From Schmidtea nova (Eukaryota), in contig CM097882.1 in assembly GCA_044892505.1 (NCBI GenBank), positions 131,812,001 to 131,854,251 on the forward strand: 42,251 bases of DNA. Reading direction: 5' to 3'. The notes under the pieces were generated by a model that did not search any database, was not told where the DNA came from, and worked only from the letters and a program-made list of their open reading frames with translations. This document shows positions 3,304 to 31,080 of this stretch, in pieces (positions within the stretch are counted from its first letter, which is position 1; each line of letters starts with the position of its first letter). The position numbers and the translations under genes were made by a program.

Positions 3304-3855
3304 TCAGTTGTCCATCTTTGGTGGGCATAAACACGAATGTTTTGATTGCGTTTGAATTGAGAAAAGATGCCACTTTAGGCTGTTGATCGTTCCTTTAGAT
3401 AGGTTATAGAATAAACCTGCTAGATTTGATTTGGCAGACATTAATGCTCCGTTTCCATCCGTGCGACGAACATAGATTAATGAATAGTTTAAATATTGCC
3501 CAAGGAAGTCATTGTAACGACGTCGTAGCAACATACCCAAATTAACATGATGCATAATTCCTCGGTTTGTTAATCCTCCAATCCCATTAGGCCGCTTGTC
3601 TTCCCTATTCTTATCAGTTGGATATATTATAACAGTTGCTCTATCTCCATGTCGATATAAAACATGGGCATGCAATAGTTGTTTGTCTGTAGCAGAACAC
3701 TGATAAATTTGGTAATTCACGATAAGTGTAAAGAAGCATAAAATAATCATAATCAATGTTTTTGAATATCTATTGGATATTAGCTTAATCTGAGGAGGAT
3801 TCATATTGGCATTTCTCCAATTAAAAAGATCCAAAGAGAGAATTGAATTAGGCAT
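3304..3855 (-). pseudogene. Captured histidine acid phosphatase N-terminal fragment in the 3' LTR of A (truncated copy)
   Basis: HVLYRHGDRA...GLTNRGIMHHVNLGMLLRRRYNDFL...IYVRRTD...LMSAKSNLAGLF follows the lysosomal/prostatic acid phosphatase pattern (RHGDRSP...GQLT...G...LRKRY...YIRSTD..RTLMSA..NLAALF). Confidence 0.8.
3312..3316. repeat. Target-site duplication CCATC of element A (partner at 11387-11391)
   Basis: CCATC flanks both ends of A and occurs once at the empty site in the 3' LTR of B (33911-33915). CCATCT (6 bp) is an equally valid reading. Confidence 0.9.
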
Positions 3856-4396
3856 TCAATGTAGAAGTAGATTAGAAACTATTTTATAATACAAAAAACT
3901 CTATTTCAAATAATTCAATAAATTGAATTAATTTCACAAGATATATTTTTTTAAATTAACTCTTAAACCATTTATTTTTTTAAAACAGGAATATTTACCC
4001 CAAGAATTTAAACAACAAACACCAAGTAAATAAATGTAAATGTAAAAAATTAAAATATATCATTTTTACTAATTATTTTGCCAGTTTAACCACAATGACC
4101 GATGTTTTATCGCCTGAAGAATATGAAATTTTGAAAGAAATTAATTCAATTTCTAAATGTAATGATATCAACAATTTCCAAATAATGCAAATTGTTCGAA
4201 ATTTAAACTCAACATATTCTCACGTTAGAATGAAATGTTTAAAAGTAATGGGCCAATTTATGGATCCCTTGAGTCATTTTCCATGTGGTTCATCTAATAC
4301 TTTTGATATTGTTCAGTGGTTTACGCAGGATCAATTTCATGGTTTGTGAAATATCATTTGAGAGAATTTTGGGTATCGGCTTTCTAGACCACTACA
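3319..4396 (-). repeat. 3' LTR of element A
   Basis: Matches 10309-11386 at offset 6990; only 3 substitutions spotted (3453, 3468, 3712). Minus strand starts TGTAGT and ends CACCA. Confidence 0.93.
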
Positions 4397-4408
4397 TTAG
4401 CCCCCATC
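4397..4408 (-). promoter_or_regulatory. Polypurine-tract-like sequence of element A
   Basis: Minus strand GATGGGGGCTAA directly precedes the 3' LTR start TGTAG. Confidence 0.5.
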
Positions 4409-4610: not shown

Positions 4611-7600
4611 TTAATTTGAATAGATTCTTATAAGTCTAGTTGTTGAATCCGGTTTTTGATTAATAGAACGGACACGAACCCATTTGTTGTAAGTGACGGA
4701 CTTTGGTTTATTTTGTGTTTGCTTAGCTTTCCTCAAAATGGGTGGTAAACGAAGTACGTCATTCGGTTCTGGGATAAACGGTATGTATTCAGATTTTTCC
4801 GTCATTTTGTTTTCTGCGTCTGATGTTTGAACAATCGGGTATGAAGGTGAGTTGTTGGAAAGATCGTCCTCAGTGGAATTGATAGGGTCATTATCGTTTG
4901 TGTGAGAGTTCGGGATTATATCGGTTTGGGTCGAGAAATTGTCAGGTGGAGGTTCATCATCGAGCAAAACTAAAGCTGGTTTAAGACGGCAGAGGTTAAA
5001 TGTTTGTGTAGCGTCGTTAACGATCACTTTCGCGTTGTTTTCTTTAATCTCGACGAGCTTGTAAGGTCCGGAATATCTTGGCTTTAAACTTGCATCAGTT
5101 ATATTTCTAATATAGACGTGTGATGCATTTTCGAATGTTTTTGGAATGTAAGGTTTATAGGTTGTCGCGGAAGAGAATTCAGGATTAGTGTCGATTGATA
5201 AAAAATGGTCTCTAGCAATCGCGAGATCTTCCAAAGTAGGAGAGTTATCAAAGTCGACAAGTTGACCTGGTAATGATGTGTTTGTACCGAAAAGTAATTG
5301 AGCAGGTGATGATCCTGTAGTCCTAGAAGGTGTATTTCGCCAACCTAATAATACGAAAGGTAAAACCTTTGTCCAACCTTGTTGTTCAGAAAGAATGCCA
5401 AGAGAAGCTTTTAAAGTACGATGGAAACGTTCGACTAACCCGTTTGTGGATGATATGTGGTCGTACGAAGATGTTGTATCCCAAGTTTAGCGGTCAAAGC
5501 TTGAAATAAGTAAGATTCAAACTGTGTTCCGCGATCACTGATGATCGACTTGGGAACTCCATATCGTGAAATCCAATTTTGAATTAGCGAAGTTGCGATG
5601 GTGTTAGAAGAAATGGTGCGTAAAGGAATGACTTCGAACCAACGAGTCTTGCGGTCGATCATGGTTAATAAGTAAGAAAAACCGCAGTCACTTGGGACTG
5701 GGCCGATGATGTCAATGTGTAAGTTTTCGAAACGGTTGCCAGTGGGATAATGAATTATTGGAGGTTTAGTGTGCTTAGTTATCTTAAAACGTTGGCATCC
5801 TATGCATTGTGCAACCCAGAGTTTAACATCATGTCTCATGTTTGGCCAAACTACACACGTGTGTAATAGATTAAAAGTGGCTGAGGAACCTGGGTGGTGC
5901 GTGTTGTGGATAGACAGAAAAGCCAGTTTTCTCATGGAGTCATTCAAGATTGGGCGAAGAGTGCCAGGAAGAGATGAGTCGTAGTGAATTTTGTCTTTGA
6001 TTATGTGTTTGTCGCCAAATTTCGAAATATCAATGGCATCTGGAGGATTATTTTGGAGTTCGTCGATAGAAAATAAAGGACAGTGGATAATTGCGTTTAC
6101 ATTTCGTGAAAGGCAATCAGCTATAATGTTATCACTGCCGGCGATGTGGTATATTTGGCAAGAAAATTCGCTAATATAGCTAATCTGGCGTTGTTGTCTC
6201 GGAGAAGGGTCTTTCATTGAGAACAAGTAAACAAGTGGCTTGTGGTCTGTATGGATGCTAAAAAGACGGCCCTCGAGTAAATGCTTAAAATGTTTAACCG
6301 ACTGGTAAATAGCGAGAAGTTCGCGGTCGAATATTTTTGTTGTGGTGAGGTAAGTTTCTTTGAGTAAAATTCTAGTGGCTCTGGGATGTAACCGTTTATC
6401 TGGTGCAAAACGGCACCGATTGCTATGTTTGACGCGTCTGTGGTTAAACGTAATGGCAAATCTCCTCGTGGATAATGCAAAGTCTGTATGTTTGAAAGGG
6501 CTGTTTTGGCATGCTCAAAAGCGAGCAACGAAGTATCGTTCCAAGGAATTATAGATTTCTTTGGTTTAGAACAGTAACCAGAAAGAGGTGAAAGAATTTC
6601 TGAAATTTTAGGAATAAAACGGTGGCAATAGTTTACTGTTCCCAGAAAACTCCGAAGTTGAGTAACAGTTTGTGGAAGAGGAAACTTAGATATAGTATCT
6701 AGTCTGTCGGATGGTGGACTGACGCCTTGACCCGAGATAATGTGACCTAAAAAACGGACTTCTTCTTTAAAAAATAAACACTTATCTAAATTAATTTGTA
6801 GGTTATTGGAAGAAAGTGCGCAAAGAACTGCATCTAAATGTTTTTTGTGTGTTTCCGCATCCTTAGAACCAATAAGGATATCGTCAATATAAGGAATTGC
6901 GAATGGTAAATCCATTAAAATATGGTCGATGTGTCTTTGAAAGGTTTGAGCGGAATTTCTAAGGCCAAACGGCATGAAAACGTACTCAAAAAGTCCGATA
7001 GAGGTGTTAAAACTGCGGTTTTTTCCACGTCAGATTCTTTAACTGGGATTTGGTGATAGGCCTTAACTAAGTCGATAGTTGAAAATATTTTGGCCTCGGT
7101 AAGTCTGTACAAAATGTCGTTTACTAAAGGCATAGAATATGAGTCGTGAACCGTAATCATATTTAAACGACGATAATCTCCACAAGGTCTGAAAGTTCCG
7201 TCTTTCTTTGGTACGAGATGAAGTGGTGAAGACCATGGAGATTTAGATCTTTTTATAATGCCTTCGTTCAACAAAGTAGCGAATTCGGAGCGAACAAAAT
7301 CTAGTTTTTCGTTCGAAAGAGGGCGTACTTTACAACGTACCGGAAGAGAGTTTGTGGTGTTGATAGTATGGCAGTAAGATGTTACAGAGACTTGCTTTCG
7401 TAAAGGCATTGTTTGTGAAAATGTGTATTTATTTAAAATGTCTGTAGCAATCTTTGGATGAATGGGTTGAATGGCAGTAGATACAGAAACGTCAGATGAG
7501 TCGGAAATGTTGAGTTTTTTTGTGTCAATGATTAAAGACGAATTTGTGTGCGAATGTGTTCTCAAAAGGCGTGAACGACAATCGACCAACAAATTGTGTG

Positions 7601-7960
7601 AACTCAAAAAGTCTGAGCCAAGAATGGGATGGATAACGTCAGCGACACAGAACTTCCATATAAAAGATTGATTTAAAGAAGGAAGAACGAAATTTGCTGA
7701 AAAAGAACCGTGTGTATTTACCATGGTTCCGTTGGCGGCTTTCAAGGTATAAACGGAATCATCGCAAAGAGATTCATATTGTAAAGGAAGAATGGAGAGG
7801 CTGGATCCTGTGTCAACAAGAAAATCGAGAGTACTGCAAAAGTTCGGAGCAACGCTGAAAGAAGGGGATTCAGCTCTCACTAGAAATAAATCGAGTGCAG
7901 GAGGTAATTTGCCATCAACTTCAGCCGCAATGAGTGATGGCATTACAAGTTTTTTTGAAT
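4611..7960 (-). pseudogene. pol: pol of element A (protease, RT, RNase H, integrase with GPY/F), broken by 3 frameshifts (~7005, ~6325, ~5440)
   Basis: FLVDTGSS (PR); WSSPLHLVPKKDG, GDYRRLN, DLVKAYHQIP, MPFGLRN, YIDD (RT); TDASNIAIGAVL, FYSKKL, TDHKPL (RH); HHCC, HIDIIGP, ISDRGTQF, VERFHR and GPYK (IN). Confidence 0.95.
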
Positions 7961-9186
7961 GTTGTTTGGAGAAGATGGTGGGGAATTGTAGGATTTGCAA
8001 CCTACGATGCATTTGTTTGCTTTATCCCCAAATCGTGCGTGATAAATGCACTTATCAATGATTTTTAGGGTAGCTACTTTGTTTCGCCAGCCACATCCTA
8101 TGTTGCAACAATTTGCTTTCGTCCCATATTTGGTATGATAAAAGCAAATGTTTGAATAAGCCGGGGATTTGGAACGTCGTCGGTCAAACGCATTGGAAAG
8201 TGATGCATTTCGAGACGGAGATTTATGACGTTCCAAATGCGAAATACTATCGGTAAGGTCGCGAATGGCGCAAAGAAGAGCGTTTTCTGTTGATGATGGG
8301 ATCGGCGGGCTTGCGATAGGAAGGCTATTGACAGATGAGCCTGGTGTACCACCTAACGGAACAATTTCATGAATTTTGTCCGCCATTTTTGCTAATTCGT
8401 GTATATCTACCGGAGACGATAAAGCAAGTATCTGTTGTGTGTGTGTGTCGGAAGTACACTTAAAAAGAACTGGCGTAGCATGTTTTGGTCGGGTGCTGTC
8501 CCATTTTGCATTTGTTCGAGGTCTGTAAAAGCCTTCTACAAAAATTCTGTCGGCTTACAACTTCCTAAAGATTGGGCTTTGAAATATTTTGAGAATATTT
8601 CCTGTTTGGGGACTTTAAATAAATCCAGCAGTCCTGTGCTGAGCTCCTCAAAAGGGGTTAAAAAGGTTTTTTGCGTTGTGCGGCGAATAACGGCAGAAAG
8701 GCGGCCTAAATGTTCCTGTGGGATGAGAGATAATATTCTATAGAATTTATCTCTTGAAGAAGTAACGCCGCAACTTTCTAAAAGGGCTTCGAGTGTGAGT
8801 AACCAAGTTGATGGTGATTGGTTCTCATCTAAAAAGAACGGACAATTAATATTTTGTCTAGAGTTACTGTCGGAAGAAGCAGCGCCTCGAACATTTCTTT
8901 GCTTTTTAGGCAAAGGTTTGGGCTTTTTATCGTCGTATTCGTTGTCATCATCTATACTTGATGGTGCGCCGCTATACAATGGTACATGACAGAACAGCAA
9001 AGAATCCGAACATATGTCAGAACTTAAAAGTGAGTCCTGATTCCTTAATATTGCGCCATTATAAGATATGTATGTCGGTCCCTCGTACGACAAGCGCTTG
9101 CATATTAATGTAGATAGTTTTGATATAGTCGTGTCCTGGGCTAGTTTGAAGTGGAATGTGAAGGAGGAAACCCTTACGAATATTGA
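7943..9186 (-). pseudogene. gag: Ubiquitin-like domain (8968-9186) fused to Gag of element A; one in-frame TAG at 8536-8538; two CHCC motifs
   Basis: PFFLDENQSPSTWLLTLEALL..CGVTSSRDKFYRILSLIP is the capsid N-terminus typical of this gypsy group. The frame continues past the TAG into ORF 7943-8386 with CFYHTKYGTKANCCNIGC and CIYHARFGDKANKCIVGC. The true start codon is not identified. Confidence 0.8.
7949..7955 (-). promoter_or_regulatory. -1 ribosomal frameshift slippery heptamer A AAA AAC at the gag/pol junction of A
   Basis: Gag frame reads CAA AAA AAC TTG TAA; a -1 shift gives AAA AAA CTT GTA ATG, which is the pol frame. Confidence 0.7.
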
Positions 9187-9540
9187 CAAAGACCTATAGG
9201 ATATGCGACGTAGCTTAAAATTCGGAAGGTTGGGCGGCTCCGTTAATTTTAATAATAATGATTTTAATAATAATGATATAAATAATAATAATATATAATA
9301 ATAGAAATTTAATATAATAAAATATGCTAACGTAACTCCGCAGCGATAATGGGGGCTGATCTTCTGTTCCGAAAAGAGAAGAAAATCTGTTAATATTGGA
9401 ATTTCTGTGACTTTTGAATTTAATGGAGCTTTTAATAGGTAATTATCGTTGTTGGTGTTAAAGTTCATTTTCGAGGGAGCTGGTGAAAAAATTACGATAG
9501 ATTTGATGTTATTGCAATTTTTCATGTTGATTTGTGTTGC

Positions 9541-10845
9541 TTACGATGTTTGACCAATTGAATTGTATCCCTGTGGCTTAACACCTAGCGGTGTGCAAGG
9601 AAACTGCTTTTGAAAGTCATTAATCAATTGTTGAGCGACTTTGGAATCCGTTTGAATAAGAGAAAAATTGGGATTTACTGGCGTTGAATTTACTGGTTTT
9701 GGATTCTGCTGAGGAATCGATCGATTTATCGCTTCTAATATTTGAACGTCGACGTTAATCATTGAAAGAACTGTAGAATTTTGATTCTGTGGAGAGACTG
9801 GAGATGAACTTATTGTTATTGCTGACAGACTCCTATTCGTTGAATTGTTGACGATTAAAGACTGATTAGGGGCTGTAGAGTTGCTAGCATCTGATATATG
9901 ATTGTTAGCTTGTTTGGATTTATCACTTTGTAAGATTAAATTCTGTTGTATTAAATATAAAGCCTGTCGAATGTTAGTGGCTGAGTCTTGTGAACTGGTT
10001 GGAATTCTTATCATTTGCGCACAGTCTAATGGAATTTGAGAGTTTTGATTTACTTGCAATGGGGTTGGAATTATAGGAATTGACGGTTGATTTTGTCGAT
10101 TGATTAAATGCATCGGAGGAGGTGGTGGTTGCATTGCAGCTGCAATTCGCTTAACGACTTCAATTTGACTAAGCGTGCTTGCATTATTAGAATTAGATGA
10201 GTTTAATTGAAGTGAATTTTTCATTATTGCTGGATGTTGTGAGACTTGGGGACGAAATGTTTGATTTCCATCTTGAATTGGAGATTGGTTTTCCTCTGAC
10301 ACCATTTTTGGTGGGCATAAACACGAATGTTTTGATTGCGTTTGAATTGAGAAAAGATGCCACTTTAGGCTGTTGATCGTTCCTTTAGATAGGTTATAGA
10401 ATAAACCTGCTAGATTTGATTTGGCAGACATTAATGCTCCGTCTCCATCCGTGCGACAAACATAGATTAATGAATAGTTTAAATATTGCCCAAGGAAGTC
10501 ATTGTAACGACGTCGTAGCAACATACCCAAATTAACATGATGCATAATTCCTCGGTTTGTTAATCCTCCAATCCCATTAGGCCGCTTGTCTTCCCTATTC
10601 TTATCAGTTGGATATATTATAACAGTTGCTCTATCTCCATGTCGATATAAAACATGGGCATGCAATAGTTGTTTGTCTGTAGCAGAACACTGATAAATTT
10701 GATAATTCACGATAAGTGTAAAGAAGCATAAAATAATCATAATCAATGTTTTTGAATATCTATTGGATATTAGCTTAATCTGAGGAGGATTCATATTGGC
10801 ATTTCTCCAATTAAAAAGATCCAAAGAGAGAATTGAATTAGGCAT
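9541..10845 (-). CDS. 434-aa chimeric ORF: signal/anchor + truncated acid phosphatase + Q/N/S/P-rich low-complexity tail; starts in the 5' LTR of A and reads through the PBS
   Basis: Uninterrupted ATG-TAA frame; hydrophobic LIMIILCFFTLIV, RHGDR motif, then 255 aa of low-complexity host-like sequence. Translation is not demonstrated. Confidence 0.55.
   Translation of the reverse strand: MPNSILSLDLFNWRNANMNPPQIKLISNRYSKTLIMIILCFFTLIVNYQIYQCSATDKQLLHAHVLYRHGDRATVIIYPTDKNREDKRPNGIGGLTNRGIMHHVNLGMLLRRRYNDFLGQYLNYSLIYVCRTDGDGALMSAKSNLAGLFYNLSKGTINSLKWHLFSIQTQSKHSCLCPPKMVSEENQSPIQDGNQTFRPQVSQHPAIMKNSLQLNSSNSNNASTLSQIEVVKRIAAAMQPPPPPMHLINRQNQPSIPIIPTPLQVNQNSQIPLDCAQMIRIPTSSQDSATNIRQALYLIQQNLILQSDKSKQANNHISDASNSTAPNQSLIVNNSTNRSLSAITISSSPVSPQNQNSTVLSMINVDVQILEAINRSIPQQNPKPVNSTPVNPNFSLIQTDSKVAQQLINDFQKQFPCTPLGVKPQGYNSIGQTS
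10295..10304 (-). promoter_or_regulatory. Primer-binding site of element A (tRNA-Leu-like)
   Basis: TGGTGTCAGA begins 4 nt after the LTR CA and is complementary to a tRNA-Leu 3' end (...UCUGACACCA). Confidence 0.65.
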
Positions 10846-11386
10846 TCAATGTAGAAGTAGATTAGAAACTATTTTATAATACAAAAAACTCTATTTCAAA
10901 TAATTCAATAAATTGAATTAATTTCACAAGATATATTTTTTTAAATTAACTCTTAAACCATTTATTTTTTTAAAACAGGAATATTTACCCCAAGAATTTA
11001 AACAACAAACACCAAGTAAATAAATGTAAATGTAAAAAATTAAAATATATCATTTTTACTAATTATTTTGCCAGTTTAACCACAATGACCGATGTTTTAT
11101 CGCCTGAAGAATATGAAATTTTGAAAGAAATTAATTCAATTTCTAAATGTAATGATATCAACAATTTCCAAATAATGCAAATTGTTCGAAATTTAAACTC
11201 AACATATTCTCACGTTAGAATGAAATGTTTAAAAGTAATGGGCCAATTTATGGATCCCTTGAGTCATTTTCCATGTGGTTCATCTAATACTTTTGATATT
11301 GTTCAGTGGTTTACGCAGGATCAATTTCATGGTTTGTGAAATATCATTTGAGAGAATTTTGGGTATCGGCTTTCTAGACCACTACA
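10309..11386 (-). repeat. 5' LTR of element A
   Basis: Direct repeat of 3319-4396, followed on the minus strand by the PBS. Confidence 0.93.
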
Positions 11387-11414
11387 CCATCTAACCAACA
11401 CACCAGCATAAATT

Positions 11415-11432
11415 TGGGGGCTCAGCCGGGAT
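11415..11432 (+). promoter_or_regulatory. Primer-binding site of element B (tRNA-Pro)
   Basis: TGGGGGCTCAGCCGGGAT matches the tRNA-Pro PBS TGGGGGCTCGTCCGGGAT at 16/18 and lies exactly where identity with the 3' LTR ends. Confidence 0.85.
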
Positions 11433-11968
11433 TAAATCGATCTTTGTGGGAATAAGTAAATTCAATACCAGCGGACAGTTTTAGAGCGCCTGAACCGGGA
11501 TGAAATTAATGTTTGCGGAGAAAAGCGAATTGAATAACAACGGAGGGTTTGAGGGTCCTGAAGCAAGAATGAATAGGGTTGAAAAATAATAAATAAAAGT
11601 ATGAGTGTGAAATAAGGAAATGATGAGCATGATAAAAGTATGCATGAGAACGAAAGTATGAATATAAAGAATGTGAAAGTATGAGTATGAATGAAATTAC
11701 GAGGAATAGTATGTGAGATAACGGTTTGAAAAGACACGAAAAGTATGAATGACGTAATGTAAAAGTATGTTGAAAGGGATGTATGAAAATGATATGAGTG
11801 TGAGCAACTAACAATGATCATGTCGAGGCGACATTCAAGAACACGGGGGGATACGCAAGTAACAACGCAAAACAGAACAACAGAAAGCGAACAGTAGGGC
11901 TACCATATAATAAGAATAATAAATAATAAATAAAAATCGACAGAAACTAATGAAAATTCATTCAGGGG

Positions 11969-13089: not shown

Positions 13090-13534
13090 GTGAGCATAGG
13101 TCTCATAGTGAGCATAGGTCTCGTTATTAAACATAACATCATAGTGAGCATAGGTCTCGGCAGTAAACACAACATCGCAGTGAGCACGGTTCTCGTCAGT
13201 AAACCTAAGTCTCGTAGTGAGCAGAGTTCTCATCAATAAACGTAAGTCCTAGCAGCGAACATAGTCCTCATCAGTGAGCGTAGTTCTCATCAATAAACCT
13301 AGTCATCGTAGTGAGCTTAGTTCTCATCAGGAAACATAACTCCTGTAGTAAAAATATTCTTCGTCAGTGAGCATAGTTCTCATCAGGGAACATAGTTCCC
13401 GGAGTGAGCAAAGTTCTCATCAACAAACATAATCTTCATAACAACCATGTGATTACCAGTGAGCATAATTCTCGTCATTGAGCATAGTTCTCGTTAGTGA
13501 GCATAGTTCTCAGCTGTGAGCATAGTTCTCGTCC
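13090..13534 (+). repeat. Minisatellite of ~23 copies of an 18-19-nt unit (consensus GTGAGCATAGTTCTCRTCA, often alternating with a GTAAAC variant)
   Basis: Unit starts seen at 13090, 13108, 13144, 13180, 13217, 13274, 13311, 13367, 13404, 13459. Confidence 0.85.
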
Positions 13535-13876
13535 AAAGTAAAATATTGAGTAAAAGCCCACGAGAAAGACGACGAAGTGAGGCAAAAGAGGACTAAATAA
13601 AGTATAAAACTATCCGGATAGTAGAGATAAACGAGCAATATTGGAGATGAATAAAGGAGAGTAGAGACGAATAATGGATAATGAAGATAAACGACGAATA
13701 GTGAAAATGAATAGCGAATAATGAGGAATAATGGTTGAAAGAAACCGAATTAATAATGAAAGAGTTGAAGGTGCGCACCTGGGTATTGATAAATGCGAGT
13801 AAAGCTGATGACGTAGCCTAATGACGTTAAAGTATGCATACAGAGAGGAGTAATAAAGTAAAGTAAGTAAGTGAAA

Positions 13877-14264
13877 GGTGCTGACTGGAAAACCCAGCAG
13901 ACCATGAGATTCGAGGAGAGTAAAACGAACCGGTTTGGAAAAACAGGTAAAGTGGTAAAGACGCTGGCTGGAAAACCCAGCAGGTCAATGATAACGATCA
14001 GAGAAGATCGAGAGAATAAAAGTGAGTAATAATAGGAAGAATGGTGAAATTGAGGACGCTGACTGGAAGACCCAGCAGGTCAAAAGTGATGATCATCGGA
14101 GTAAAGAGCAGTAAAAGTCGATAGTAAAAGGATAAATGGGGGGGGGTAATAAAAGCGCTGACTGGAAAACCCAGCAGGCTAATGAGAATGAGCGAAGTCG
14201 AGAGTAACAAAAATTCGAGATAAAAGGTGAGAGTAAAGGTGCTGACTGGAAAGCCCAGCAGGCC
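13877..14264 (+). other. Array of five 27-nt bulged RNA hairpins NNN-g-CTG-r-CTGG-[AARRC]-CCAG-CAG-N'N'N'
   Basis: Copies at 13877, 13960, 14055, 14154, 14238; the basal 3 bp differ in sequence but stay complementary in all five. Confidence 0.8.
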
Positions 14265-15160
14265 AACAAGAGATGTTAGTTGAATTAAAGGTGAGTAGAG
14301 ATGAGAGTTAAAAGGAAGTAGTAAACGTAGTGTGAATAAAGAATAAAGTGAGTAGTCGAGAAACAGAGTAGTCGACAGATAAGGGGAAATTTGAACTCAG
14401 AGCCAGAGAAGCCTGAGAAAAGTAAAGGGTATAGTAAGAGCGCTGAGCGACAAAGTAATTGGGAAACTGGGGAAAAGTAATTGGTGTATTTGATAAAGTA
14501 TAGATAATTGATACGACTGCATAGATAATTTAAATAGACTTAAAATCAAGGGAAATGGGACAAATGGGGATCTTCATGAATTATGACTACACCCGTGAGA
14601 GGGACGAGAAACACGATAACGGAGACGTATCGTGTAAGTGATTATTTGTTTTAAGGAAACAAATCAATCAAGCAATTCAAAGCAATCTAGCAGTCAGAAC
14701 AATCAAAGGAAACAAGTCAAAGAAGAAGCAAAGCAAAAGCAAAGTAGATAACCAGTTGAGAATATAAGAAGTTGAGCGATAGACAAAATTGAGGAACGTG
14801 AAACAAGAAACGGTACAATACCGATCCTAACAGAAGCCGAAAGAAAAGCAGAAAAAAAGGCAAGAGCAGTGAATAAAGCAGCGCAACTAAAGAATAAACG
14901 AGTAGAGATCAGTGATAACTTGAGTAATAAAGAGAACCAAGAAGAAACCCCAGAGAATCCAGAAGTACGAAACGAAGTAGAAACGAAGTAGAAACGAAGT
15001 AGAAACGATAGACAGTGAACTAGTCAGTGAAAACAGAACAAGAAGCGAATCAAGAGATAACGAAGTAGAGAGTAGCGACAAAGAAGGATTAAACCCAGAA
15101 ATAAGTGGTGAACTAGAAGTAAATGGAACTAGTACAGCATTCCAAGACAGTGGAATCGGG

Positions 15161-28593: not shown

Positions 28594-28597
28594 CAGA

Positions 28598-31080
28598 TGT
28601 TTGGGCGTATCACCTGAACTCGGAAATATGGGCTGATCGATTACGAATCTAACCAGCGATCCACTCAGGCTACTTCCACCCGCTCGGCACAAGGCCAGAA
28701 ACAGGTTTCGGGGGGTATGGAAGAAAAAGGAATTATTACTTTTATCTTGGTACAATAATTATTATTATAAAATAAATTTTTATTCCATCTGAGAGTTTAT
28801 GACATGATTAAATTCAAAAAATGAAAAACAAAGAAAAACAACTTTCATTTAATATTTTGGATAATAATTAAAATTGATGATGATAATATAAGAATAATAA
28901 TCAATAATATAAAATTAACAATAATAAAATAATACTGGGTACGGGGCGTGGCCTGGCCAGTGTTCATTGCGTGCGCAGCACGCAGGTGGCTTAATCAACA
29001 AGGAAATTATTAAAGAAATTGTTTAATGAATTTGTAAAAAAAGTTAGTTAATTGAAATTTTATATAAAAATATAATTTATGGAATTTTCTTAAAAAATGA
29101 TTCAAATACTATTTGTATTCATTTCAGTTTCTTCTTTATTTTTTTCTCTTTAAGAAAGTCATAAGAAATTCTTATAATTGTTGGGCTAGGCAAATCAGTC
29201 ATCATCTGAAAAGTAATATAAAATCAATAAAATAAATTTACAAAAAACAACAACAAAATAAATTACCATCACCAAGAATGCAGCAAATAAGCGGCAGAAT
29301 CTAAAAGTAATAAAGCATAAATCAAAACAGCAATAACAATAAAAACTCACCCATGCGGAAAGCAGAAAATCTGAAAGGGCGTGGGCAGACATCACCAAGA
29401 ACCTGAAAAAATAAAGCAAATAATAACGAAAGATTTATGCATGAGTAAACAAACAACTTACTGAATTAAATCATGCAGAAAAACTGACGAACATAAATGA
29501 GTAACAATAAATACACACATACTTGATGCTGATTGGCCAGCCAACATCACAAATTTAGTATAAATACTGAAGCAAAATCACTATGAGATATATCATTTTT
29601 TACCGAGTGAAATTGTCAGTGAAACCCGATACTGTAACTTTGTGAAATCTAGGTGTATCGAAATAAAAGTTAAAGTTGATTGCATTATTACTTATTTTGA
29701 ACCCTCATAATCATACTAAAATCAATAAGGATCGTCCCGAAGGCCTAACGGTCTGACGGGATTCTCGGCCTCTCGGCACAACATATTTTCATATGAGGTG
29801 CCGATGCGGCGGGACTCTAGGTGTAATAAACTATTTATCGATCGGGAGTGGGGTGCACATGGGATATCGAGAAACGGCGGGTCAGCAAATTTCATCCGAG
29901 GTAGAGTTAAGCTAGACTATATATTACAGGCCCCAGAGAACCCAAGAGGAGGGAGTGCACATAAGATGTAGTGAATCGATGAGTCGAACGTATATCCAAC
30001 CCTATGCATACAATCGATAATAAACATCATGATTTACCGAGAATTAGAGGCGAGGGACCACCAAAGTTTTAGGCAGTTGGTGCATGTACATCTCATATAG
30101 GAGTTAACATTTACGGGATTCGGAGCCCAGATTAACCCTAACGAGCAAAGATCATTGGTAGATACAGATAGGCTGATGACAAAATGATGAGGTATGCATG
30201 GTGCAGATAGAGATAAAAATTTACAAATAAGTAATACAATAAATGACGGTATATTGATCATGTGTGATTAGAATGACTGAAAATAAATTTTAACTAAATC
30301 AACAACTGGTGATCAGCAGTAGCAATAACATCATCCTACACGGTCTATTTCACCGACCGAAATATGGTTAACCGGATGGATACTAGACACCCACTTAGCT
30401 GTGAACAACAAAATCGCCAATCTGCGTGGAAGGATCCACTATAAATAGAATCCAGCATCACTAATGAATATTCAACCAAATTATTTACAGATGAAACGCG
30501 AAAGCCTTATCACCTCGATGCCAACTTCGTCTCTCCCGCAGCAACCAGGTCACGATAAGACGAATCGGAAACGCACCCGATCTATGCCGGAGCGACATGC
30601 AGATGACCAAAGACAAGTGGAATTGCAGGGGGTGAAAGACGCACCCATTCCGATTGTCCGCCAAGCTCACTGACACCTCCGCAGATGGAGACAACGACAC
30701 TCTAATCCAGCGGCCAGAGTCGCATCATGTTCGTTTACGTTCCGACTACGATGGGAAGGAGATGCGGAGTGGATGTCATCGTTGAGCCAGCTCAACCTGA
30801 ACCTTTCGCGATGGTTCATTCAAATGACAGATGACGCAGAGCAACCTCGCTGGATACTATGCTCCGAGATCATGACAGGCCCCGGTGAAGCGACACTGGG
30901 GAAATCCAGCTCTATCCTCACGCGCCAGGGAGCGTAACATTGGAGCCCCATCCAGAGCCGAATGATCTCCGATTATGAAAGGTGTTTGCACACAAAGACA
31001 AGCTTGCGACCTTTTTTCTAAGAGGAAGACGTTCGTAGCCGAACAAACAAGCCCCAATGTAATTGTATCATAAATGAATA
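28598..31080 (+). repeat. Partial, variant copy of the B LTR (equivalent to 1076-2230) with a 1.4-kb extra segment (29381-30787) and a ~75-bp deletion near 31005
   Basis: 28598-29380 matches 1076-1863; 30788-31080 matches 1864-2230. Confidence 0.85.

Follow-up and report, generated by a model that had tools for sequence, protein, structure and literature searches.

What is a piece of a host acid phosphatase gene doing inside both LTRs of a planarian retrotransposon, and how did it come to lie there? LTRs are generally taken as non-coding control units whose interior turns over by small changes. In a 42,251-nt stretch of Schmidtea nova DNA (positions 131,812,001 to 131,854,251 of contig CM097882.1; here called the window), a gypsy element that we refer to as element A presents another picture: host exons appear to have taken the place of about 95% of its LTR, and the family continues to spread. 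An initial annotation, made from the letters of the sequence, had recognized the phosphatase fragment; it contained neither the antisense fragment of a second host gene, INTS4, in the same LTR nor the continuation of the open phosphatase frame into a long element ORF (ORF0). The element is planarian and CsRn1-like, and we find that in a subfamily of it host sequence has replaced the interior of the LTR. In our best explanation, held at just short of even confidence, the phosphatase piece would give start codons and a signal peptide to ORF0.

A CsRn1-like element nested within a Burro-like element

Element A lies on the minus strand. Its two direct repeats, which the initial annotation had described correctly, are the 5′ LTR (10309-11386) and the 3′ LTR (3319-4396), each 1078 bp long, bounded by TG and CA, and carrying the phosphatase piece. 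The pair differs at 3 sites (0.28%), a fourth mismatch falling outside the LTR. Four A after the CA of the 5′ LTR lead to the PBS (TGGTGTCAGAG, 10294-10304, minus strand), which we take to resemble a tRNA-Leu site and which is not obviously that of tRNA-Trp, and a purine-rich tract (4397-4408, minus strand) precedes the 3′ LTR. The target duplication CCATC(T), 5 or 6 bp, is found at 3312-3317 (plus strand) with its partner at 11387-11392. Between it and the CA of the 3′ LTR there are 1 or 2 extra bases (3317-3318), which match the A run separating the 5′ LTR from the PBS, and the true right end of the LTR may be CAA or CAAA.

The internal region encodes the C-terminal part of Gag (7943-8554, minus strand), with two CHCC motifs of the form CX2HX9CX3C, and Pol in the order PR-RT-RH-IN (4611-8021, minus strand), split into four pieces that do not lie in one frame; both gag and pol are disrupted at several places. 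The two CHCC motifs stand in tandem at 7943-8145. An alternative genetic code was considered for the stops and rejected, as TAA, TAG and TGA are mixed and accompanied by frame shifts, for which decay is the simpler explanation. Paired LTRs, PBS, purine tract, target duplication and PR-RT-RH-IN order, the features of a Ty3/gypsy element, are all present, and judged by its sequence element A is a young member of that group, CsRn1-like by the CHCC motif of its Gag. The CsRn1 clade is defined with the motif CX2HX9CX3C, and in the accessible text of its description its members CsRn1, PwRn1 and AgCR share with element A this motif, the PR-RT-RH-IN order and a flatworm host (PMC2582038). Element A differs from them in its ubiquitin-like domain, its long ORF0 and its target duplication of 5-6 bp; because the last is not 4 bp as in PwRn1, we call the element CsRn1-like only. 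Its LTR is also longer (1078 bp, against 381 bp in PwRn1), and its CHCC motif is doubled, a feature that the accessible text does not mention for CsRn1-like elements (PMC2582038).

Element A is inserted in the 5′ LTR of element B, 22 bp inside its 3′ end, and the intact empty site is present in the other LTR of element B. The difference between the LTRs of element A (0.28%) compared with that between the LTRs of element B (0.56%) fits A as the later insertion. A local duplication or an assembly artefact, the former being what the initial annotation had named as counting against its reading, might be suspected from the broken coding region of element A. We consider it extremely improbable in view of the target duplication, the PBS, the purine tract and the empty site, the 3 sites at which the LTR copies differ, and the cargo variants found in contigs of all four public runs described below.

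Element B (483-33932, plus strand) is a Burro-like giant gypsy element with a CCHC Gag, a mononegavirus-like fusion protein between gag and pol (PF24664, E 8e-53) and ankyrin repeats after the integrase; it is broken by several stops and frame shifts, and its PBS is presumably like a tRNA-Pro site. Planarian Burro elements have the same layout, and in the accessible text they carry a SUMO-like domain (PMC6431247), so that together with element A two planarian gypsy lineages have a ubiquitin-type domain. We also noted a third, 5′-truncated copy of the element B LTR (28596-31081, plus strand), which matches 1074-2245 in pieces, stands directly before the full 3′ LTR and contains a 1.4-kb insert at 29381-30785. 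The element B LTR has a 185-codon open frame (2379-2936 and 32978-33535, plus strand) with a weak Pfam match to CxC5 (E about 0.01-0.04), and its 5′ leader holds tandem arrays at 13090-13530 and 13870-14280 with units of 18-19 bp and ~95 bp. Farther along, the regions 36146-37144 and 37807-39160 hold an old relic, ~69% alike to the opening 1.2 kb of the window (element B LTR start and flank), and a 700-bp tandem duplication at 84% identity. Two N gaps (40608-41037 and 41457-41793) lie among ATT-rich repeats, and the repeats at 41053-42251 may reflect an assembly overlap.

A host acid phosphatase fragment in both LTRs

In each LTR, the element-sense strand carries the 5′ fragment of a type 2-like acid phosphatase (3334-3855 in the 3′ LTR and 10324-10845 in the 5′ LTR, both minus strand), with in-frame Met codons at residues 1, 18 and 36 and with homology, in the 3′ copy, over 3750-3334. 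The frame 3855-3304 matched PF00328 (E 2.9e-10, 40.5 bits against a curated cut-off of 23.6) as well as human prostatic acid phosphatase (E 4.6e-18, query residues 58-151), which bears out the family assignment made earlier. Among 1.84 billion representatives, the best match by far was Dugesia japonica acid phosphatase type 2 (QGW52013.1, E 2.5e-40), with 72 of 126 residues identical (57%), which by itself points to a planarian host. The same protein was the sister of the fragment (support 97/92) in a tree that included 32 of 154 homologues, where the Dugesia lysosomal paralogue stood apart; the branch of the LTR piece was 0.75 long, against 0.19 for Dugesia type 2. The hydrophobic segment of the initial annotation was recovered at residues 33-51 (Kyte-Doolittle mean 1.95), within a putative signal at 33-55.

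While QGW52013.1 has 417 residues, an HD motif and a C-terminal anchor, the LTR piece corresponds to its first 138 residues only, and the homology stops at 3334 and 10324, five codons short of the LTR end. Thus, the HD motif is absent, as had been stated, and the fragment does end close to the CA of the LTR where homology is concerned, but in the 5′ LTR the frame runs on past the LTR end and the PBS. RHGDR is retained, Pro74 is replaced by Thr in both LTRs, and the phosphate-binding Arg136 of RTLMS, which is Arg in 96% of the homologues, is replaced by Gly in both. At sites with at least 80% conservation among the 154 homologues, 8 of 36 are changed; without Tyr122, where Dugesia also has Leu, 7 of 35 are changed, six of them within residues 131-169 (Fisher p 0.01). 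Pro164, Pro166 and His168 are changed in the WxPxPxH stretch, which is said to form a dimer contact in rat prostatic phosphatase. Lacking the HD motif together with two thirds of the fold, the predicted product cannot be a working enzyme.

The piece has no intron in either LTR, as the initial annotation had noted. In a metagenome scan that returned 37 phosphatase loci, none was close (best segments 31-48%, two 23-aa pieces excepted), and in 8 of the 14 loci examined among these an exon began at one of two places inside the stretch, with a break after LT(N) additionally in 3 of the 8. Capture of the piece from an mRNA is plausible, because the piece lacks introns and other animals have them at three places inside the same stretch. 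A word-index search with the phosphatase part returned only 4 distant proteins, and a search of viral contigs gave 0 loci.

An antisense INTS4 fragment and the layout of the LTR

On the opposite strand, antisense to element A, each LTR contains a fragment of an INTS4 exon (4085-4334 in the 3′ LTR and 11075-11324 in the 5′ LTR, plus strand), with homology over 4185-4334 and 11175-11324; the 33 codons upstream belong to the same open frame. The frame 4095-4349 was identical to a related protein, P0160, at 44 of 50 residues (49 of 50 positive, E 1.3e-23), and P0160 is the Integrator subunit INTS4 (E 7e-54 to the solved human INTS4). The piece corresponds to human residues ~120-205, with homology evident only from ~157. 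With a profile built from two sequences, the first 39 positions still stayed outside the alignment, a PDB sequence search with the 84-aa plus-strand frame gave chance matches only, and an atlas search with this frame gave a weak HEAT hint. The changes are only conservative, and the observed preservation has a probability of about 0.01-0.02 if the piece had decayed as the phosphatase piece has. One 238-bp contig over the INTS4 piece (X4 record 31) showed 0 differences from the window.

From its 5′ end, the LTR consists of a 40-bp tip (4357-4396, minus strand), which is common to another LTR form that branches off at 11347, the antisense INTS4 piece, an AT-rich stretch, the sense phosphatase piece and a short end. 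Since INTS4 fills much of the half that the phosphatase leaves, only ~40 bp at the 5′ side and at most 15 bp at the 3′ side look native to the element. The INTS4 exon is preceded by an intron-like stretch of 15% GC (4026-4084, plus strand) with a TACTAAT branch-like motif, pyrimidines and CAG, a putative spliced intron. The AT-rich stretch (3856-4025, 19% GC), which may act as a spacer, holds the sole AATAAA of the LTR in the element sense (10966 in the 5′ LTR); this lies upstream of a TATAAA (10878) that stands 33 nt before the first phosphatase ATG. Borders of U3, R and U5 can be placed only with RNA data, according to the accessible text of PMC3601003.

This layout bears on how the host sequence was acquired. 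Most likely, read-through or co-packaged host RNA was joined to the element by template switching, and the host pieces, being part of the LTR, arrive at either end of every insertion through reverse transcription. There were probably two capture steps, the phosphatase first, because the changes in INTS4 are only conservative and the contigs branch at a point between the two. A single-step capture of a head-to-head locus is a less likely alternative. Going further, and in our view unlikely, the divergent host promoter between INTS4 and the phosphatase could have been taken in a single event of the Cassandra or SVA_F1 type, with the sense gene spliced, the intron of the antisense gene kept, and the coding pieces as hitch-hikers. 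The head-to-head frames, whose ATGs at 3855 and 4095 are 240 bp apart, the AT-rich stretch with its TATAAA, a native U3 seemingly down to 40 bp, and the pattern of a spliced sense piece and an unspliced antisense piece are all as such a capture predicts. However, the INTS4 piece is internal to the protein (human ~120-205) unless the planarian protein is shorter, the pieces differ in decay, and the contigs branch between them at 11018. Promoter capture is also compatible with the leader function discussed below, and the two do not exclude each other.

The antisense orientation invites a different reading, of the TART-nxf2 type, in which transcripts of the element yield piRNAs antisense to INTS4 mRNA, and piRNAs to the phosphatase arise from antisense transcripts, with the outcome that Integrator activity is lowered or the host restrains silencing. 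We hold this anti-silencing reading to be distinctly improbable. INTS4 is not a piRNA-pathway gene, and Integrator may have a role against transposon RNA; the INTS4 piece is antisense and little decayed, as the reading expects, but a recent capture might alone account for this preservation. In planarians, piRNAs target LTR elements (PMC8532177, accessible text), and silencing genes have repeatedly been captured by Drosophila telomeric elements, although at around 80% identity such captured pieces have lost their targeting of the host gene there (PMC13534243, accessible text), a limit that weakens the case for the older phosphatase piece. If small RNAs against the host matter, as the initial annotation had suggested for the phosphatase, the antisense INTS4 piece would be the better candidate.

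The captured LTR in other copies of the family

Related copies were found in the contigs of four public runs (one study, three samples), in which about half of the words of 9400-11400 were present and every bin of 7900-11500 was covered. The cargo occurred in deep, variable contigs in all four runs, with depths of 3490, 515, 394 and 345 at 10626, within the phosphatase codons, in comparison to 6-79 for strongly diverged relics among those listed. Depth is no copy count, but the phosphatase piece is plainly not unique to the present insertion, and the spread beyond this insertion that the earlier reading assumed, together with host origin, holds. A form diverged by 8% (X3 record 22) also has the phosphatase piece, with 27 letters and 3 gaps different over 10648-11005.

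Comparison with these copies also qualifies one of the residue changes. The replacements of Pro and Arg had been presented as features of the captured piece, and both do occur in the two LTRs here; most contigs, however, read Pro at motif position 74, and they agree with Dugesia at Trp88 and in part at Gln102 and Phe104, so that the loss of Pro belongs to the lineage of the present copy. At codons 131-137 and 164-168, no variant was seen among the 40 of 186 contig rows listed.

Capture-free and capture-bearing LTR forms exist side by side in one species. Contig loose ends mark one form that has only the tip in common (11347), another that has the INTS4 part followed by different sequence (11018), and a third that shares only the last bases before the PBS (10314). 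Contig depth over the cargo was ~0.3-1 times that of internal parts, compared with an expected twofold, and, with depth being no copy number, this gives a weak hint that many family LTRs may lack the phosphatase.

An open frame from the phosphatase piece into ORF0

The phosphatase frame has different fates in the two LTRs. In the 3′ LTR it reaches a stop in the flank at 3304 after 183 codons, whereas in the 5′ LTR it continues uninterrupted through the LTR end and the PBS for 434 codons. This ORF0 (9541-10845, minus strand; 434 aa) comprises the phosphatase piece and a 254-aa body rich in S, Q, N, P and T, which has a Met of its own (Met181) overlapping the PBS. The 255 codons downstream of the 5′ LTR are open well beyond chance (P about 1e-7); the in-frame fusion has a one-in-three chance by itself. 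Residues 181-434 are 54% S/T/P/Q/N and contain 13 N-x-S/T sequons where shuffled sequences have 5.1 (p=0.0004), although the test was chosen after the count had been seen and repeated NST motifs may inflate the enrichment. As controls, neither the 16 remaining segments nor the 5 control motifs yielded any p<0.08, and the fusion-protein part of element B, an expected glycoprotein, showed no enrichment (1 against 2.6). The ORF0 body has no hydrophobic segment, its highest hydropathy window being 0.96.

Within the phosphatase piece, there are 0 stops or frameshifts in 181 codons at an estimated divergence of ~9-10%. From the decay of conserved sites, ~3 stops per 181 codons would be predicted, and the probability of no stop is 0.04-0.07, within a wide interval (up to 0.28-0.38 when its lower bound is taken); some of the decay may also be older than the capture. 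With indels assumed at 1/10 of substitutions, the probability of the open frame falls to 0.0006-0.002. Consistent in direction, contig indels in ORF0 and ORF1 sum to multiples of three (9, 3, 6 and 2+1 nt, with one variant 1+2; 12 of 18 rows listed), several of them sitting in short repeats, while both spacer indels in the same 12 of 18 rows are 1 nt.

In the same frame behind the single stop of ORF0 follows ORF1 (8536-9540, minus strand), with a TM-like stretch, a ubiquitin-like domain, a DUF7041 capsid-like region and a broken 3′ end. The TM-like stretch (aa 74-92) lies over an ATT repeat and may be accidental. The ubiquitin-like domain (8974-9192, minus strand) stands directly before the capsid-like region and ends in LYSG; its Pfam match (E 5.6e-05) is below the cut-off, and one of five structure models was best at pLDDT 78, against 40-47 for the others, with a Foldseek TM of 0.82 to a UBL. 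A word-index search with the ubiquitin-Gag part returned longer proteins only, with none of 1447 candidates scored, which is weak evidence, and an atlas search with ORF1 returned nothing. The ORF0 stop lies inside a donor-like GTAAGC, and 2 of 9 acceptors are in phase with the ubiquitin-Gag frame. Across the candidate intron the frame stays open for 115 codons (P about 3e-4), with 11 and 4 stops in the remaining two frames, so that this stretch is more likely coding than spliced out.

A proposed host-derived leader and its alternatives

In our preferred reading, the phosphatase piece provides ORF0 with its earliest AUGs and with either a signal peptide or an anchor; the ORF0 body would be the element's own sequon-rich protein, starting at the PBS and lacking a hydrophobic segment. 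The predicted product, encoded upstream of Gag, is a glycoprotein that would be secreted or anchored in the membrane, comparable to MLV glyco-Gag; selection would then preserve the reading frame and the signal rather than the residues of catalysis. The earlier description of catalytically dead cargo is accurate insofar as catalysis is lost, and too simple insofar as the frame stays open for 181 codons despite the changes at 7 of 35 conserved sites, and continues into ORF0.

The principal competitor is a neutral passenger: host RNA caught by accident in an LTR, where it was tolerated and then multiplied as an active master copy spread, the frame and the sequons being coincidence. Each of the 7 listed differences between the present copy and most contigs in the phosphatase frame alters the amino acid, and 5 move away from what Dugesia has, a pattern to be expected if selection does not act on the protein; there are also other forms of the LTR, and the interval of the open-frame test is wide. 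Against these points stand the lack of stops and frameshifts at the estimated divergence, the in-frame junction to a sequon-rich ORF that has no signal of its own, and the retention of the phosphatase piece in the diverged second form. On balance we judge a passenger to be somewhat unlikely.

The initial annotation had also raised a dominant-negative fragment, which would poison the host phosphatase dimer. The signal peptide and RHGxR are kept, and such a fragment could reach the same compartment as the enzyme. Nevertheless, it would contain ~120 of the 340-350 residues of the fold, the WxPxPxH stretch has decayed at Pro164, Pro166 and His168, the piece in the 5′ LTR is fused to 254 unrelated residues of ORF0, and the element would have no evident gain, all of which makes this proposal very improbable.

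Returning to the proposed host-derived leader, a protein-level parallel is MLV glyco-Gag, in which translation from a start upstream in the same frame brings in a membrane signal, and viral sequence enters the secretory path and is N-glycosylated. For element A, an upstream in-frame start, a signal and sequons are predicted from the sequence. The glyco-Gag start lies downstream of the PBS, derives from viral sequence and includes Gag, whereas in element A the signal is host-derived and lies within the LTR, and the Gag frame is set apart from ORF0 by a stop. Both host pieces could also be in use, the signal peptide routing an ORF0 glycoprotein to the secretory path and the INTS4 antisense turning piRNAs on Integrator; we rate this combination as improbable, on a level with promoter capture. 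Within it, read-through of the one stop would possibly yield a membrane-anchored ubiquitin-Gag polyprotein.

If the leader reading is true, a host signal peptide on an element ORF is a route by which env-less retrotransposons could arrive at a surface or secreted glycoprotein. More broadly, the family makes it testable whether captured host sequence is retained as a promoter or as a protein leader, serves sabotage by small RNAs, or has no use at all, and with the somatic piRNAs and easy RNAi of planarians the INTS4 idea can be tested directly.

Comparison with known systems

Host-gene-derived sequence in LTRs is known from Cassandra, Helenus and Ajax (TRIMp3), where it consists of short non-coding Pol III small-RNA promoters (PMC10886601, accessible text). 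TRIMp3 and element A have host-derived sequence in both LTRs in common, which in TRIMp3 is used or thought to be used. Unlike TRIMp3 as described there (PMC10886601), element A has gag-pol, and pieces of two protein genes make up most of its LTR, one of them in frame with an ORF; Rfam and tRNA searches gave no match. The Drosophila captures of nxf2 by TART-A and of piwi and aub by telomeric elements likewise place a 140-250 bp host fragment at both ends of a retroelement in a host with piRNAs (PMC13534243). Those elements are non-LTR elements that took piRNA factors, with targeting measured according to the accessible text, whereas element A is an LTR element with INTS4 and phosphatase pieces read from sequence.

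Foreign sequence enters LTR elements by template switching or read-through (PMC13317346, accessible text). In BARE-2 it lies in the LTR itself, as in element A, the donor there being another retrotransposon and not host genes (PMC13317346, PMC6431247). Gene capture by LTR elements is common and, in the accessible parts of these sources, usually falls between the LTRs (PMC2774510; PMC13317346, PMC6431247). The literature covered, which included few subscription papers, excluded Repbase and was not searched for INTS4 by name, contained no report of element A, of phosphatase or INTS4 pieces in an LTR, or of a gag-pol element whose LTR is mostly taken up by protein-gene pieces in frame with one of its ORFs. 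Overall, gene capture by LTR elements is a known process, and what is unusual here is the captured sequence's position within the LTR, its two donors, and the in-frame join across the PBS.
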